The translations under genes and the position numbers were made by a program. A DNA stretch of 64,000 nucleotides from an uncultured Verrucomicrobiae bacterium. GTDB lineage: Bacteria; Verrucomicrobiota; Verrucomicrobiia; Chthoniobacterales; UBA10450. The notes below the pieces were generated by a model. The model made no database searches, was not told the DNA's origin, and saw nothing but the letters and a program-made list of their open reading frames with translations. Shown here one piece after another: positions 11,810-56,812 of this stretch; the stretch's first letter is position 1, and each line of letters starts with the position of its first letter. The DNA is taken from NCBI GenBank assembly GCA_963815455.1, contig CAWFGO010000001.1:64001-128000 (forward strand), written 5' to 3'.

Positions 11810-13110
<1,301 letters not shown>

Positions 13111-13120
13111 GGCGCAAATT

Positions 13121-13259
13121 ATGAATGACGAATGACGAATGTCTAATGACGAAGGAACGACGAAATCCGACTGGCCGAAACTGCCATGGACAGTTTGATG
13201 TCGTATCATGCGACATCAAACTGTCCTAAGCGCTTAACTTCATTCGGGCTTCGTCATTT
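13121..13259. repeat. Heptamer inverted array enclosing a 39-bp palindrome (13188-13226)
   Basis: atgacgaatgacgaat ... ggacagtttgatgtcgtatcatgcgacatcaaactgtcc ... ttcgtcatt. Confidence 0.8.
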
Positions 13260-13312: not shown

Positions 13313-14358
13313 GTGGAAACCCTCAGCCTTCTCGGCGTCGCCCTTGGTCTAGCGTATCTCTCCGGGATCAATCTTTATCTGACCGTCTTCGCCACCGGCC
13401 TGGCGATTCATTTCCACTGGATCACGCTCGCGCCCGCCTATCAATCGCTCGAAGTGCTGGGCGATCCCGTTGTGATCATCATCTCCGGCGTTCTCTATTT
13501 TCTCGAATTTTTTGCCGACAAAATTCCCTGGGTCGATTCGGCCTGGGACGCCGTCCACACCGTGATTCGGCCAATCGGCGGCGCGCTTCTCGCCATTCAG
13601 GTGCTCGGGCATCCCACTCCGGCTTTCGCAGTGATTGTCGGATTGCTTGGCGGCGGCACCAGCCTGGTTGCCCACACCGCCAAAGCTGCCACGCGTCTCA
13701 CCAGCAACACTTCGCCCGAGCCATTTTCGAACATCGCACTGAGTCTGGGAGAAGATGCGGCGGTTCTCGGCGGTCTGGCGCTCATCCATTACAATCCCCT
13801 GTTCGCTCTGTTCGTCTTCGCGCTTGCCATCGTCGGCTTCCTTTATTTTGCGCCAAAGATTTTGCGCGCTATGAAATCAAAAATCTGGCTGGCCTTGAAA
13901 AAGTTGAATGGCCCGGCCGATCTCGGCACTCCGGTCCAACTTCCTCTCGCCCTGCCGGCCCGGCTGGCCGCTGTGTTCAGTCGCGAAAATGTTCTTGGCG
14001 AAACGACCGCCTGGGCTGCGCCGTGCATCAGCGGACGCGGTCGCCGCATCCCGGCGAATCTTTTTGGCGCGCTGGTCGCCACCAATGAGGAGCCGAGAAA
14101 GCTGCGGTTCGTTGCGCGAAAAAATGGACGGCCATTTTCCCAGACCGATCGATCTCGAAGGCTCGATGGTCGCGCACGAGCCAAAATTTCTGTCCGAAAA
14201 TCTCATTATCTTCCCGGCCGCCGGCAAAGGTCCAAAATATCTTGTTCGTGTTTCCCCGGCCGCACGCCGCGATGGTGGAACGGATCGTGGAATATTTGCG
14301 CGAGCGTTTGGGTCGGCACGAGCCCGCGGAGGAAGCGGTGGTTGCGAGCGCAGAATAG
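13313..14358 (+). CDS. DUF4126 domain membrane protein (frameshifted in 3' part)
   Basis: SGINLY, LEFFADKIPWVDSAWDAVHT, SPEPFSN motifs; C-terminus continues in other frames. Confidence 0.85.
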
Positions 14359-37200: not shown

Positions 37201-38486
37201 TCTATTTCGATTACAACGCCACGACGCCACTGTGCGATCCCGCCCGCGCGGCGATGCTCCCTTATTTGGATCGACATTTTGGAAATCCGTCGAGCGTTCA
37301 CGCGGCTGGACGCGAAGCGCGCGCGGCAATTGATGATGCGCGCGACAAACTCGCCGCGTTCATCGGCGCCAAATCTCATGAAATCATTTTCACCAGCGGC
37401 GGCACCGAATCGTGCAACCTCGCCGTGCTCGGTTTGGCCCGAACAAAGTGGCATCGGCATCCTGCCGATGGGACATCGCCTGGAAGGCGATGCCACATCA
37501 TCTCGAACAAGGCCGAACATCATGCGGTTCTCAACGCGATCGAGCACTTGGAAAAGCATGAAGGCTTCGAAGTGACGTGGCTCGGCGTTTCAGAAAACGG
37601 AATCGTCGATCTTAATCAGCTTGCGGAATCGATTCGTCCGGAGACGCGGCTGGTTTCGATCATGACCGCGAACAACGAGACGGGTGTGATTCAACCGATG
37701 CGTGAAATCTCGGCAATCTGCCGGGCCAAAGGGGTTCTGCTGCACAGCGACATGGTGCAATCATTCGGGAAGATCAGTCCCGTCATTCCGACCGAAGTGG
37801 AGGAATCCCGTGATGCCACCCTGAAGGTAATGCAACGGGGTCCTTCGACCCCGAAAGCTTTCGGGGCTCAGGATGACACTGATTTTCTTTCACTGGTCGA
37901 TGCCGCCAGTTTCGCCGCTCACAAATTTTACGGGCCGAAGGGCGCAGGATTTCTTTATCTGCGCAGTGGATTGTCGATCCAGCCAATGATGTTTGGCGGC
38001 GCGCATGAAAACCAACGACGGCCCGGGACGGAAAACGTTGCCGCGATCGCCGGGATGGCCGCGGCCGCGGAATGGACGTTGCGCGACCGCGAGACCGAAC
38101 AAGAACGCGAAGCGCAACTGCGCGATGATTTGTGGACACGCATTTCGAGCAACTTCTCCGCCGCAGTTCAAAACGGCGATACGGGACAACGGCTCTCCAA
38201 CACTCTCAACGTAAGTTTTCCCGGCATCGACTCGGAGACGATGCTAATGGCGCTCGATTTGGAAGGCGTTTGCGCATCAAGCGGATCGGCCTGCATGGTC
38301 GGCTCCGTCGTTGCCTCGCACGTCTTGCTCGCCATGGGTCTGCCGATGGAACGCGCCGGCTCAGCGGTTCGGTTCTCGCTCGGCAAATGGACGACCATGA
38401 ACGAAATCGATGGCGCCGGTAACGCGATTCAACGCATTTGCGACCGGCTAACGAAGGCGAAACAGAGCGAATATGCCGTTGTTTAG
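37197..38486 (+). CDS. iscS: Cysteine desulfurase (IscS/NifS) with two repeat-derived in-frame insertions
   Basis: YFDYNATTP, FTSGGTES, NNETG, DMVQ, HKFYGPKG, SSGSAC. Confidence 0.93.
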   Translation: MIYFDYNATTPLCDPARAAMLPYLDRHFGNPSSVHAAGREARAAIDDARDKLAAFIGAKSHEIIFTSGGTESCNLAVLGLARTKWHRHPADGTSPGRRCHIISNKAEHHAVLNAIEHLEKHEGFEVTWLGVSENGIVDLNQLAESIRPETRLVSIMTANNETGVIQPMREISAICRAKGVLLHSDMVQSFGKISPVIPTEVEESRDATLKVMQRGPSTPKAFGAQDDTDFLSLVDAASFAAHKFYGPKGAGFLYLRSGLSIQPMMFGGAHENQRRPGTENVAAIAGMAAAAEWTLRDRETEQEREAQLRDDLWTRISSNFSAAVQNGDTGQRLSNTLNVSFPGIDSETMLMALDLEGVCASSGSACMVGSVVASHVLLAMGLPMERAGSAVRFSLGKWTTMNEIDGAGNAIQRICDRLTKAKQSEYAVV

Positions 38487-40407: not shown

Positions 40408-40442
40408 GCGGAGAAGATAACTGACCGATTACGGGATGCAAA

Positions 40443-40513
40443 GTGTAGCGGCGTTTGTGCCAAACGCCGAACCAAGCGAACAGGCCCTCGCCGCGGCGAG
40501 CGCCTCTACAACT
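40443..40513 (+). repeat. REP doublet, left flank of RAYT
   Basis: gtgtagcggcgtttgtgccaaacgcc...ggcgagcgcctctacaact; near-identical direct copy at 40979. Confidence 0.92.
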
Positions 40514-40528
40514 CAATATGACTGGTTC

Positions 40529-40984
40529 ATGCCCAACAAACCGCCGCGGCTCGACTGGATATTTCAGTCGTACGATCCGCCTCTTTTCTTTGTTACGTTC
40601 AATACTGCTCACCGAAAGAAGCTCCTCGCAAACGCAACGTTGCACGACTCGTTTGTTGAGTTCGCGAGGGCCGGCGAATCGCATGGCGTTGGCGTCGGGC
40701 GTTATGTAATCCTACCCGACCATGTGCATCTCTTTGTGCGCGGGGATCGAAGCTTTGTCTTGTCGCAATGGGTCCGCATGTTGAAAAGAAAACTATCCAC
40801 GGCGATTTCAGCCGAACCACCACATTGGCAACACGGATTTTTCGATCATCCAATCCGGCACAGCGAAAGTTACGCAGCGAAATGGGAATACGTGCGACAA
40901 AACCCAGTCCGCGCAGGATTGGTCGCGACACCCGAAGAATGGCCCTGGCAAGGTGAAATCGTTAGAATCGAGGCCCAGGTGTAG
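40529..40984 (+). mobile_element. REP-associated tyrosine transposase (RAYT, IS200/Y1 HUH family)
   Basis: FFVTF, YVILPDHVH (HUH), WQ.GFFDH.IR, EYVRQNPVRAGLV, WPW. Confidence 0.92.
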
Positions 40985-41049
40985 CGGCGTTTGTGCCAAA
41001 CGCCGAACCAAACGAACAGGCGCTCGCCGCGGCGAGCGCCTCTACAACT
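40979..41049 (+). repeat. REP doublet, right flank of RAYT
   Basis: Two mismatches relative to left copy; supplies the RAYT TAG stop. Confidence 0.92.
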
Positions 41050-42936: not shown

Positions 42937-42972
42937 GACAGATTCATGTCGCATATGCGACCTGAATCTGTC
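42937..42972. repeat. 36-bp palindrome (one mismatch) just past PaaX-like stop
   Basis: gacagattcatgtcgcat|atgcgacctgaatctgtc. Confidence 0.92.
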
Positions 42973-42978
42973 CTTCGC

Positions 42979-43764
42979 CTAAGCGGGCCTGAACGTACGC
43001 AGCTGGTGGCCCGCTTCTCGCAGCACCTGCATACGACGACGCCATGCCCGTTGCCCGAGATAATCGCGCGGCAAAATTGGCGATGGCAATAAGGGGTCGA
43101 TAGCAATCGCATTTAACCATCCGTCGCGCTCGGCTGCAGCCCAGCGCCGCAATTCCTTTGCCGCATTCTCATTCTTCAGTGCGCCGCCCGGTCGCTGGTC
43201 GATCACTTTCAGGTGCTGGACATAGCGGCGGTTGATTCGCTCGAAGTCCCAAGCGCCTGCAACAATGTCCGCATCCGATTCTCCTCCACACGGTCGCACC
43301 TCTAATAGGACCAGGGATTCCACGTTGATTTTCCCGCCACAAAGAATCTGCTCTTCTCCCTCCAACGGGTCGGGCGTAATCCAGACGCTGTTTTGTAGGT
43401 AACCAAACCCTTTGCTGCGCAGATAACGTCGCAACCGGTCCCGCTGAGAATTTTTTCGCGTGGGCACGTCGAAAAGCACCATCCGCCATTTTCCATCCCA
43501 AGGCCGAGCCCAGCGTTCTTTCGGATCGCGTCCACCAAGGACATGAAGTCGGCCTTGCGCCGTCAATCGATAGAGTCTGTCCTCCATCGCATTGGCTTTT
43601 CGCTCAATCCACTGTTGTCGTTCCAGCCTCGAAATGCGTTTGAGCATTCCATTTCGGTAGGCCCAGCTTTCGAATGAATCGTCGATATTTCGAAAACTCG
43701 GACGCATCAGTTGGTCGGCGGTCCAGAGTAAATAATAGAGAAACTCCTCGGTCTTCGGACTCAC
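42979..43764 (-). CDS. PaaX-like protein (winged-helix-like N-terminus, Cas2-like central domain, PaaX C-terminal domain)
   Basis: YRLTAQG, WDGKWRMVLFDVP, LRSKGFGYLQNSVWITP, AWDF, DPLLP..ILP. Confidence 0.88.
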   Translation of the reverse strand: MSPKTEEFLYYLLWTADQLMRPSFRNIDDSFESWAYRNGMLKRISRLERQQWIERKANAMEDRLYRLTAQGRLHVLGGRDPKERWARPWDGKWRMVLFDVPTRKNSQRDRLRRYLRSKGFGYLQNSVWITPDPLEGEEQILCGGKINVESLVLLEVRPCGGESDADIVAGAWDFERINRRYVQHLKVIDQRPGGALKNENAAKELRRWAAAERDGWLNAIAIDPLLPSPILPRDYLGQRAWRRRMQVLREAGHQLRTFRPA

Positions 43765-43797
43765 GACCGATTATCACAAAAATCTCGCGTCACTTCA

Positions 43798-43837
43798 AGG
43801 CCAGTTTCATGTCGCATATGCGACATGAAACTGGCCT
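43798..43837. repeat. 40-bp perfect palindrome upstream of PaaX-like gene
   Basis: aggccagtttcatgtcgcat|atgcgacatgaaactggcct. Confidence 0.95.
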
Positions 43838-54175: not shown

Positions 54176-56812
54176 TCAGCGTTTCGCCTGGAAATCGGCC
54201 AGGAGCTTTTCGTACTTCAGCGTGGAAGGATGATTCGGGCCCAGGACTCTGCGCGCACCTTCCGCCGCGCGGCGCGCAAACTCGTTCGCTTCGGAAATCT
54301 TGTTCTGCCGGACCAGGCCGCGGGCGAAATCGTAGCAGGATTCCAAAGTATCGGGATGAGTCGGCCCAACTATCTTTTCCCGCAGTTGAAGGACGTTGCG
54401 CATTTCGGCATCGGCGTCCTGGCCCTGATCCATTTGCGTTCTGGCCAGGCCGCTGCGGCTGGACAACGTAATCGGATGCTCGGGCCCGAGCACCTTCTCT
54501 TCGAGCTTGATCAGGTCCCGAAACTGCGCTTCGGCCTCGGCATACTTGCCTTCGCCTTCGAGAATATTGGCCAGGGTGTCACGAGCACCGAGCGTGGCGG
54601 GGTTCTCCGCGCCGCTGGTCGCTTCCAGACGTCTGACGACCGGCCAAATTTCGGCCTCGGCCTCGGCATACTTGCCTTGTCGAGCGAGCGAGTCGGCAAG
54701 GTTGTTGCGGCTTCCAAGTGTATCGGGATTTTCCGGCCCGAGCACTTTCCTTTCGATCCCGATAAGCTGGCGAAACTGCGCCTCCGCTTCAGCATATTTG
54801 CCCTCGTTTTGCAGCATCACCGCGAGATTGTTGCGGCTCCCAAGGGTGTCGGGATGCTCCGGCCCGAGCACTTTCTCCCGCAGGCCTAACACGTCGCGAA
54901 ATTCGGCCACCGATTCCGCATATTTTCCCTCCGCTCCGAGCACCCCGGCAAGATTGTCGCGGGCTCCGAGTGTATCGGGATGTTCCGGGCCGAGCACTTT
55001 CCCCCTCAGTTTGATGACCTCACGAAACAGCGCTTCCGCGTCGGCATACTTGCCTTCATTTTGCAGCGTGACGGCGAGATTATTGCGATTGTCGAGCGTG
55101 TCAGGATGCGTCGGCCCGAGCACTTTCTCTTCCAGTTTGATCAGATCCCGAAACTGCGGTTCCGCCTCGGCAAATTTGCCCTCGCTTAGTAGCGTCGTAG
55201 CGAGCTTGTTACGGCTTTCAAGGGTATCGGGATGCTCTGGTCCGAGCACTTTTCCCCTGAGTTCCAGCACTTGTCGATATTCGGCTTCCGCTTCAGCATA
55301 CTTGCCTCGACTCAAGAAGGTGAAAGCCAGGTTGCCCCGGGTCCTCAGAGTGTCGGGGTGCTCAGGTCCGAGCACTTTTCCTCGGAGTTCGAGCACCTGT
55401 CGATATTCGCTTTCTGCATCCGTATACTTGCCTTCGCCCATGAGCGCGTTGGCCACACCGTGACGGCTGGAGAGCGTGTCAGGGTGTTCGCGGCCAATTA
55501 CCTTTTGCTCCAGCTTGATGACCTCCCGAAACCCGGCTTCCGCTTCGGCATATTTGCCTTGCCGGTAAAATGCGTAGGCCAAACGGGCCCGACTTCTCAG
55601 GGTGTCGGGATGTTCCGGACCGAAAACACGAGCGCGTACTTCAACAACGCTGCGCAGTACTTTTCCCGCGTCGCTGTATTGCCCCTGATCAATGAGCAGA
55701 TCGGCAATTGCGTATTGAACTTCCGACCAATCTTCCGGGTGGCGATCGCGATCAGTCAGTTTCTCAGCTTCGCGGAAGTATTCCATCGCGTGAACGTATT
55801 GAATGCGTTTCTGCGCCGACAGGCCCGCCAGTTTTAGACCAGCGACCGCAGCGCCCAACTTTGGCGGCGCACTTTTTTGTGCCTCGTCCGCCGCTTGCAA
55901 AGCCAAACGCTCCGCTTCGACATAGTCTTTCGTCACGTAAGCGGCGTTCGCGCGCTCGAAAAGACTCGCCTTGGGCGATTGCTTCAGTTGCTCGGCAAAC
56001 TTTGGGAGCTTTTCTCGAAGGACTTTCGGGTCAAGCCCGAGCTGTTTCCCGAGCTCGCTGTAAACGCGTTCCTCCAGTGCCGCCTGGTTTTCACCGGCTC
56101 GAGCTTGAACGTTCTCGACGATCGCGCCTCTTGGCCGCGCGGTGGTTTCGCCGGTTTGAGCCTGGCGCGCCCGGGCCTCGATGTTTGGATAATCCATGAT
56201 GCCTTCCCGCAGCTTGGCAATCTCGGACTTCATCTCGGCCTGGCCGTGCAGTTGCCAGATTACCAAACCGACGATGACCACAAGCAGCGCCGTAATACCC
56301 AACGCCCACTGTTTCACTCCGCGTCGAAGCTGGGTAAGATCGTCGCGCAGTTTGAGAACACTCGCCTCCAGTCCTTCGGTCGTGGTCAGAGAATGGTAAA
56401 CGTGCGTGTCGGACTGCAACGTGCGGCGATAGGCATCTTGCAATTCGCGAAGCTCTTCCGGCTCTGGTTCGTGGGGATCGATCGGAAAGGTTTCGTCGAT
56501 GAAAAGATACCAGACCTTCTTGTCCCGTTTTCGCGCATAGAGCCCTTCGTACTGGGTGTAACTAACCCGGCCGAATTCTTCATCCGCTCCCGGCGGTTCC
56601 GCGCCGTAACATTGTCCAACGAGTTGAACGACGCCCTTGCACTGATCGATTTGCTGGCGCAGCAATCCGCGCAGATCCCCGCCCTCGGTCCCGAAAATAT
56701 CCTGCCACACCGGCTGATAGCCCAAAAAGGTCAGCGTGTTAGCGACCAGTTGCCGAGCGCTGCGAAGCTCACGGCTCACCGCAGAAACGAAAATCAGGGG
56801 ACGCGGAGTCAC
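54176..56812 (-). CDS. DUF4062 domain + TM + TPR array protein
   Basis: IFVSAVSREL, VQLVGQCYG, SYTQYE (DUF4062-like); one TM; twelve G(P)EHPDTL-type units about 42 aa apart. Confidence 0.88.
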   Translation of the reverse strand: MTPRPLIFVSAVSRELRSARQLVANTLTFLGYQPVWQDIFGTEGGDLRGLLRQQIDQCKGVVQLVGQCYGAEPPGADEEFGRVSYTQYEGLYARKRDKKVWYLFIDETFPIDPHEPEPEELRELQDAYRRTLQSDTHVYHSLTTTEGLEASVLKLRDDLTQLRRGVKQWALGITALLVVIVGLVIWQLHGQAEMKSEIAKLREGIMDYPNIEARARQAQTGETTARPRGAIVENVQARAGENQAALEERVYSELGKQLGLDPKVLREKLPKFAEQLKQSPKASLFERANAAYVTKDYVEAERLALQAADEAQKSAPPKLGAAVAGLKLAGLSAQKRIQYVHAMEYFREAEKLTDRDRHPEDWSEVQYAIADLLIDQGQYSDAGKVLRSVVEVRARVFGPEHPDTLRSRARLAYAFYRQGKYAEAEAGFREVIKLEQKVIGREHPDTLSSRHGVANALMGEGKYTDAESEYRQVLELRGKVLGPEHPDTLRTRGNLAFTFLSRGKYAEAEAEYRQVLELRGKVLGPEHPDTLESRNKLATTLLSEGKFAEAEPQFRDLIKLEEKVLGPTHPDTLDNRNNLAVTLQNEGKYADAEALFREVIKLRGKVLGPEHPDTLGARDNLAGVLGAEGKYAESVAEFRDVLGLREKVLGPEHPDTLGSRNNLAVMLQNEGKYAEAEAQFRQLIGIERKVLGPENPDTLGSRNNLADSLARQGKYAEAEAEIWPVVRRLEATSGAENPATLGARDTLANILEGEGKYAEAEAQFRDLIKLEEKVLGPEHPITLSSRSGLARTQMDQGQDADAEMRNVLQLREKIVGPTHPDTLESCYDFARGLVRQNKISEANEFARRAAEGARRVLGPNHPSTLKYEKLLADFQAKR

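Follow-up and report, generated by a model that had tools for sequence, protein, structure and literature searches.

Two unrelated protein families are known to be encoded between their own palindromes, with related repeats dispersed elsewhere in the genome. In the first of these, the REPtron, a RAYT gene (encoding TnpA-REP, a protein of the HUH/Y1 type) lies between its own REP or REPIN palindromes, the repeat types are lineage-specific, and dispersed copies occur in intergenic regions, where they number in the hundreds. RAYTs are described in parts of PMC5581495 and of bioRxiv 10.1101/2021.07.10.451892 as mostly vertically inherited, chromosomal, low-copy genes, and parts of the same two sources and of PMC8266576 describe how the repeats shrink after the gene is lost. 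The second is Ssn of the NTS/SRM system, where a small gene has a copy of its own palindrome on either side, with homolog-specific variants and dispersed copies; part of the report of Chenal et al. 2025 (PMC11893778) describes Ssn as a monomeric GIY-YIG single-strand nuclease of about 94 amino acids (aa), and PaaX and Cas2 go unmentioned in its main text.

The protein discussed here has its closest structural relatives elsewhere. PaaX repressors (PDB 8A39 and 3L09; Rv0674, 3KFW; TIGR02277) combine a winged helix-turn-helix (wHTH), a Cas2-like domain and a C-terminal helical domain. According to part of PMC9493321, the E. coli PaaX site is the palindrome TGATTC-N27-GAATCA, which spans 39 bp with a free middle of 27 bp, and PaaX represses its own promoter. 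Cas2 and VapD share a ferredoxin fold with an Asp on the first β-strand and a Gln-x-Ser motif, and in a Cas2-prespacer structure from E. faecalis the Asp and Ser at the matching positions hold Mg at the prespacer's minor groove (part of PMC10491678).

The family considered below is neither a paa regulator, nor a RAYT, nor an Ssn, and it resembles RAYT and Ssn in its working. It is likely a third, undescribed system of a gene plus its own repeat beside REP/RAYT and Ssn. No paper on a gene of the PaaX/Cas2 fold lying between its own palindromes was found in searches that covered mostly open journals, in their main texts.

The locus, its surroundings and its protein

The window is a stretch of 64,000 nucleotides from a 3.62-Mb genome that is 90% complete (G000, with contigs C3 and C7 among others). 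On its minus strand, at 42979..43764, an ORF call gives a PaaX-like gene of 261 aa with a GTG start. A perfect 40-bp palindrome, reported in an earlier note on this DNA, is indeed found 33 bp ahead of the start at 43798..43837, with its centre, CATATG, 53 nt from the start codon; no other perfect palindrome in the whole genome is as long, the runner-up being 24 bp. The 36-bp palindrome that the note placed after the gene lies at 42937..42972, 6 bp beyond the stop and about 205 bp ahead of eno, and has one mismatch (17/18 pairs). Both copies carry the core that they were said to share, and the arm differences between them, which had been described as self-complementary, amount to two compensated pairs. 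The upstream palindrome is the predicted binding site of a dimer of the protein. Next to it, at 43770..43798 on the minus strand, lies a sigma-70-like promoter match (TTGAAG, 17 nt, TG-extended GATAAT) whose -35-like hexamer adjoins the end of the palindrome and which ends 5 nt ahead of the GTG. It is a consensus match only, in a region where the scan gives two matches against 0.6 expected, and an mRNA made from this predicted promoter would be leaderless. The same genome holds a paralog at C3:349195-349980, 66% identical. It has uppS on one side and a radical-SAM gene (by Pfam) on the other, a different palindrome pair and zero solo copies.

The statement that the window has no paa catabolic genes, cas1 or CRISPR array extends to the genome, on single queries. 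With E. coli PaaA, PaaB, PaaC, PaaK, PaaX, Cas1, Cas2 and CasE there were zero tblastn matches at E 1e-3 in the 90% complete genome, a check from which a distant Cas1 would escape; PaaZ, PaaD, PaaE and PaaG gave only matches of 23-33%, all to general enzymes. Runs of 18-mers at CRISPR spacing were absent from 7/7 contigs. An Rfam scan of the 64-kb window returned a single tRNA and nothing else.

Several other repeats occur in the same DNA. A RAYT gene lies at 40436-40984 on the plus strand of the window (NF047646, 92 bits), 2 kb from the PaaX-like gene, and is bracketed by 71-bp direct repeats at 40443-40513 and 40979-41049 that both begin with GTAG; about a dozen RAYT-like places are found in G000 by tblastn. 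A second RAYT, frameshifted and lying between its own GTAG repeats, is at C3:385639-386143. An 18-bp perfect palindrome at window 37849-37866, present at 8 other places (at least 9 in the genome), belongs to another repeat family, and the coding region at 54456-55623 contains at least 9 in-frame repeats of 126 bp (42-aa units).

The protein starts with N-terminal helices and a winged HTH (about aa 31-75), continues with a middle domain of the Cas2/VapD fold (aa 87-163) that carries D99, R108, Q124 and S126, and ends with a helical PaaX_C domain (aa 172-242). Pfam recognizes PaaX_M at E 8e-20 and PaaX_C right at its cut-off, and the score for the PaaX equivalog TIGR02277 is 68.7 bits against a cut-off of 264.55. 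Cas2 profiles also stay below their cut-offs (Pfam 17.3 vs 23.8 bits; TIGR01573 21 vs 24.5), and PADLOC gives weak Cas2 matches only. An AlphaFold2 model (pLDDT 89, 85 sequences in the alignment) superposes along its whole length on Rv0674 (3KFW) with Z 13.1, rmsd 4.6 and 212 aligned residues, and on E. coli PaaX (VIA) with Z 12.9, rmsd 6.3 and 231 aligned. The middle domain matches Cas2 proteins at Z 7-8.5, with 3EXC at Z 8.5, rmsd 3.3 and 72 aligned. Unlike Cas2 and VapD, this domain is fused to a wHTH and PaaX_C, has no cas1 match or array in its genome, and no antitoxin neighbour was seen. In profile searches, in which the window RAYT scores 92 bits, the protein has zero matches to Y1_Tnp/HUH and NF047646, which sets it apart from RAYTs, and zero to GIY-YIG, which sets it apart from Ssn; an H-u-H motif occurs in only 4/85 rows of the family alignment.

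The Asp of the first strand, pointed out earlier in the motif VLFDVP, is D99. Among 49 full-length proteins from the loci described below, D99 is kept in 48 (the single exception is a frameshifted copy), R108 and Q124 in all 49, and S126 in 48; Tyr235 is invariant among full-length members. E. coli PaaX has Glu and Ala at the Asp and Gln positions and retains the Ser, and five other canonical PaaX-type proteins also lack the Asp, so that canonical proteins differ from the palindrome-bracketed family in lacking the Cas2 Asp and Gln. D99 could be structural, or could bind metal and do nothing more. Among 50%-identity clusters the family counts 827 representatives at E≤1e-10, the weaker of which include canonical PaaX, and 231 at E≤1e-30. 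In the Atlas, PaaX_M clusters are unnamed or auto-named only, and are mostly from Verrucomicrobiota. Short members of about 170 aa without PaaX_C (L012-L016, L198, L202-L204, L206, L208 and L210) retain the Asp/Gln-x-Ser and mostly the palindrome bracket; their records are titled Saccharibacteria, Gammaproteobacteria or metagenome contigs.

The palindrome bracket across the family

To follow the layout across homologs 63 loci were collected, of which nine were left out (3 duplicates, 4 fragments, 1 without flank and 1 canonical PaaX). A repeat common to the upstream and the downstream flank, at a local score of at least 14, is present at 48 of the remaining 54; at the same threshold the figure is 82 in 2862 for cross-locus pairs and 14 in 600 for long ORFs of G000. 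An independent set consisted of 27 metagenome loci, one viral and one plasmid locus (29 in all). After 10 had been dropped as duplicates or for a short flank, it gave 14/19 bracketed loci; here all 13 with the Asp and Gln-x-Ser are bracketed (two of them near-identical), as against one of the six without the full motif, and that one lies on AT-rich sequence. Canonical PaaX-type genes are bracketed in 0/6 cases, with scores of 8-13.5. The expectation that both flanks of homologs would carry lineage-specific palindromes is borne out at the 48 loci, with arms private to each gene. The family further differs from the PaaX repressor in that the sites stand on both sides of the gene, the entire site is palindromic and its centre is conserved.

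The centres of both palindromes could be placed at 40 of the 54 loci, and family-wide they read C-R-N-N-Y-G, with C at 152/160 half-sites and a purine at 160/160. A variable central dinucleotide is thereby enclosed in a conserved 6 bp, and this shared centre contrasts with the private outer arms. Palindromes are 36-44 bp long across the family, and in 16/40 loci the upstream one is centred at -50 to -59. Outer-arm sequence correlates weakly with wHTH sequence (Mantel 0.21), a figure confounded by kinship. One homolog, in a record titled as a Blastochloridaceae MAG (L011), is bracketed by palindromes of 64-66 bp, about 1.6 times the usual length.

A conserved 6-bp centre around a variable dinucleotide would also suit an att-, dif- or lox-like recombination cassette, in which the gene would be cut out by crossover at the centre, a solo staying behind, and solos would act as landing sites. 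Paired solos 123-170 bp apart do occur and could be remnants of such events, and the invariant Tyr235 could be read in the same sense. Against this, variants in the compared cassettes are shared 31 times within a copy, 18 times between outer and inner halves and 16 times in direct order, and the 18 against 31 does not speak for a central crossover. The empty mutS-TPR and uppS-hemN junctions described below carry no palindrome, the members of about 170 aa are bracketed though they lack the domain with the Tyr, and profile searches found no recombinase, integrase or transposase domain in the 261-aa protein. It would surprise us greatly if the unit proved to be a cassette of this kind.

The earlier note took the compensated arms as a sign of selection on a hairpin or cruciform, and on this point the evidence is divided. 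Pooled over seven genomes, compensated non-consensus pairs number 91 vs 53 in re-paired halves, with significance in G095, G394, G553 and G598, none in two others and a value below expectation in G195 (1 vs 4.2), in a test whose copies are related and in which G598 mixes subtypes. In the largest set, the 25 copies of G154, there is no such excess: arm pairing is 380 vs 386 in shuffled arms, and compensated non-consensus pairs are 9 vs 11. Conservation in G154 instead falls into two blocks per arm, positions 2-8 and 13-22, between which 9-12 vary freely, and this speaks for a dimer that binds the duplex. No excess of arm symmetry is seen beyond position ~19 in the same seven genomes, and the idea of a symmetry reaching into the flanks was dropped on that account. 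An arm-pairing excess in G550 (162 vs 129) was set aside because it is confounded by three paralog subtypes.

These observations bear on the possibility that the protein is a hairpin-recognising single-strand nuclease, RAYT- or SsnA-like, whose substrate is the folded palindrome and not the duplex. The compensation in four genomes is unpredicted by plain duplex binding; three solos of G095 are perfect palindromes with differing spacers, a soil relative of the G000 cassette has one compensated pair, and predicted hairpins are stable, at -22 to -14 kcal/mol. Winged helices, on the other hand, read duplex DNA. The same soil relative has two uncompensated changes, and G154 and G195 lack compensation. 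A GTAG-type tag 5' of the family palindromes, as in REP, is not enriched (11/80 vs 15% at random positions), the SRM motif of Ssn is matched by 0/80, and conservation follows the duplex-site pattern rather than that of RAYT repeats. Moreover, in E. coli, template switching at quasipalindromes can perfect them without selection on the hairpin (part of PMC7202029). A hairpin nuclease is for these reasons judged improbable. In our reading the palindrome is probably a duplex site that from time to time regains its symmetry; a nick in the centre, if it happens, could stimulate template switching.

Solo palindromes and the inheritance of the gene

A third, solo copy had been reported at 13188 of the window. 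It is real (13188-13226), and lacks the exact core, since an additional base sits in its centre and leaves 17 pairs around a 5-nt loop. It lies inside another repeat family, between two divergent genes, an ORF starting at 13313 (+) and a gene at 11810-13209 (-) that from its translation we take to be serS-like; the latter is split across two frames, probably by an assembly error. Further solos of G000 are at C3:387113, C3:387283 and C7:4440, with a weak site at C3:630129, which makes four solos, or five with the weak site, and two of the four touch other repeat families. The two at C3:387113 and C3:387283 are 170 bp apart, follow a gene that is presumably mutL-like, and lie 1 kb from the frameshifted RAYT.

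Solo number tracks the presence of the gene, a correlation that the earlier note had proposed to look at. Among 26 congeners examined with a permissive pattern, the five gene carriers have 31, 25, 25, 23 and 20 copies, and the 21 gene-less genomes have 7, 3, 1, 1, 1, 1 and fifteen zeros (one zero being the unpublished G008, which enters no other result). The 7 and 3 copies belong to the gene-less G075 and G196 and stand at orthologous sites; a perfect 5/26 correspondence of palindrome and gene, obtained at first with a narrow pattern, was rejected as an artefact because these two have related copies. The carriers form one clade (support 86 in a congener tree of 18 rows, with G220 lacking the marker), so the contrast is close to a single event. 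Intergenic copies that are scattered and dwindle once the gene is lost are likewise a feature of RAYT/REP, here within one clade and not independently, and the 4-31 copies contrast with the hundreds found there. In 301 family genomes, seven have at least five exact cores of one type, and 6/7 carry the gene. Distant carriers have their own cores in 15 (9 solo; G550), 22 (G598), 9 (G553) and 9 (G022) copies. Four carriers of an ill-fitting palindrome type have 0 copies by pattern, and three gene-less controls have 1-3.

The gene itself is patchy. It was found in 16/300 family genomes and 20/400 phylum genomes, often in 2-3 copies each, in a survey with one query over incomplete genomes. Its neighbours differ widely (mutS, uvrB, uppS/hemN, tyrS, prfB and a VWA pair, from 58/104 flanking ORFs scanned). 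Patchy presence upstream of eno, another expectation, is what is seen: the cassette is missing there in 5/5 relatives and present in a soil contig about 93% alike, with no joint skipping the cassette among the contigs examined, while uppS and hemN are adjacent without gene or palindrome in 4/5 relatives. Within one genus the gene occupies a mutS-TPR junction in the single clade of carriers. In the sister pair G075/G196 it is cleanly missing, leaving a junction of 73-75 bp without palindrome, and the outgroup G115 retains at this site (C41:40030-40390) a truncated, frameshifted remnant with one palindrome. Other decayed copies are a frameshifted full-length gene in G203 (C32) and a 5' fragment ahead of uvrB in G023 (C3:1406337).

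Intact copies are under purifying selection, with dN/dS of 0.11-0.23 compared with 0.06-0.09 for a neighbour gene. Paralogs of one genome at different sites group together within G598 and, for two of them, within G550, and the two G000 copies belong to one clade; other paralogs that share a genome sit on long branches. Viral contigs and plasmids are nearly free of the gene, with one weak viral match, and plasmid matches are only to canonical PaaX-like proteins at less than 33%. This scarcity and the lack of near-identical copies (the G000 paralogs being the 66% pair above) are unlike an insertion sequence, and no target duplication was found outside the two palindromes. Metagenome contigs yielded no close relatives (best 59%) and no recent jumps of a whole cassette. 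The unit is mostly vertical, often lost, its solos then decaying, and occasionally duplicated to new sites.

Solos tend to lie at gene ends. Most of the 22 solo loci of G154 are close to a gene's 3' end. The gaps that they occupy are convergent in 7 cases, tandem in 12, divergent in 1 and unclear in 2, and 7 convergent to 1 divergent departs from the G000 baseline of 46:87 (Fisher p 0.005; the codon model of the script's gene caller comes from G000 and serves distant genomes poorly). In a second set, 14 solos from G550, G588 and G095, 4 lie in convergent and 3 in divergent gaps, so that the convergent bias is not universal. Nine solo sites compared across congeners include some common even to gene-less genomes and others present in only some. 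At one of them a hairpin that G220 and G075 have in unbroken form is interrupted by a block of about 66 bp containing the palindrome; block insertion accounts for the gain of this solo, and a search for the donor of the block found none.

These positions weigh on the alternative raised earlier, that the gene encodes an ordinary autoregulated repressor whose regulon includes eno and serS. Its PaaX fold, the promoter match adjoining the upstream site, the placement of the 13188 solo between divergent genes and the 3/14 solos of the second set in divergent gaps would all be natural for such a repressor. It would leave unexplained the second site after the stop codon in most homologs, the unrelated neighbours from locus to locus and the absence of the cassette from eno and uppS-hemN in the relatives just given, as well as solos that prefer convergent gaps and are gained and lost among congeners. 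The downstream site, varied neighbours and convergent solos make it very improbable.

Some solos may owe their position to other elements. In G195 five of them (L291, L310-L313) ride inside a MITE-like repeat of about 480 bp with terminal inverted repeats of about 18 bp, one family palindrome standing in mid-element. RAYT-family matches are present in 13/13 genomes tested, and another enzyme could therefore move the palindromes. G598 is unusually expanded in this respect, with 148 RAYT-model matches, most to the C-terminal half and in frames of about 340 aa; its core doublets and triplets (L325, L328, L331, L327, L329 and L062) are 36-65 bp apart and REPIN/BIME-like, two doublets having a common spacer.

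The protein might only bind, acting in autorepression, as a roadblock or in chromosome organisation at gene ends without any cutting. Its palindromes would then spread as passengers of MITEs, REP/BIME mosaics or ordinary recombination, and would persist for as long as the genome has the protein. The MITE-like carrier, the solos beside or inside other repeats, the general presence of RAYTs, the solo sites conserved across congeners and the regulatory ancestry of PaaX are all consistent with this account. Yet the flanks of the 22 G154 solo loci share no sequence, the gene-less G075 and G196 are RAYT-rich and have few palindrome copies, and the Asp with Gln-x-Ser and the conserved centre go hand in hand with bracketing, and canonical PaaX has neither. 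We consider binding alone an unlikely account of the unit, while giving it real weight.

A model of the unit and what it would mean

The reading we favour, to which we attach about an even chance, is a gene-plus-repeat unit whose protein binds its palindrome, represses itself and occasionally nicks its site to seed copies. The protein would very probably bind its own 36-44-bp palindrome as a double-stranded cognate site. Once bound it would, with fair probability, repress its own promoter. An occasional nick at the palindrome centre that seeds or renews copies is the least certain step, and perhaps a doubtful one; only four or five solos in G000, and none for its paralog, speak against propagation. 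If the dimer geometry of PaaX carries over to a site of 36-44 bp, the outer block would be taken by the winged helices and the dyad by the Cas2 pair. Two winged helices would then grip the lineage-specific outer arms at positions ~13-20 from the dyad, and paired Cas2-fold domains would sit over the C-R-N-N-Y-G centre, where Asp99 and Ser126 could fix a metal to the DNA backbone, as in complexes of Cas2 with a prespacer; the dimeric state and its geometry are thus presumptive. That the dyad and the Asp/Gln-x-Ser are both conserved here, and that dyad, Asp and Gln are not in canonical PaaX, is what leads to a model of binding, autorepression and nicking. A bolder version, in which a Cas1-free Cas2-fold enzyme, acting alone and steered by its fused winged helices, holds the ~40-bp palindrome as duplex in the manner of Cas2 with a prespacer, cuts at the dyad and drives insertion at gene ends, is tentative and, in our judgement, rather unlikely.

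The parallel that the earlier note drew with RAYT-REP stands in the palindromes at both flanks, their lineage specificity, the patchy gene, the solos at 3' ends and the copy number that follows the gene. Restriction of homologs to an upstream site, stable synteny and solos at conserved promoter positions only, which the note named as contrary outcomes, were not seen.

The PaaX-like family would be the third to be encoded between its own palindromes with dispersed repeats, and would bring to this arrangement a repressor fold with a Cas2 core that probably reads duplex DNA. It accounts for a class of orphan genes that carry the annotation "PaaX" or "Cas2" in genomes that have neither paa nor CRISPR genes. 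As the predicted site is written beside each member, the family offers a ready set of orthogonal protein-DNA pairs of 36-44 bp. If the Asp is catalytic, its members are candidate rare-cutting nucleases and would allow a direct test, outside CRISPR, of the disputed nuclease role of Cas2. If the protein does propagate its palindromes, it would be a third protein family to have taken up a REPtron mode of life, and a present-day model for the roles of Cas2 and palindromic repeats before CRISPR.
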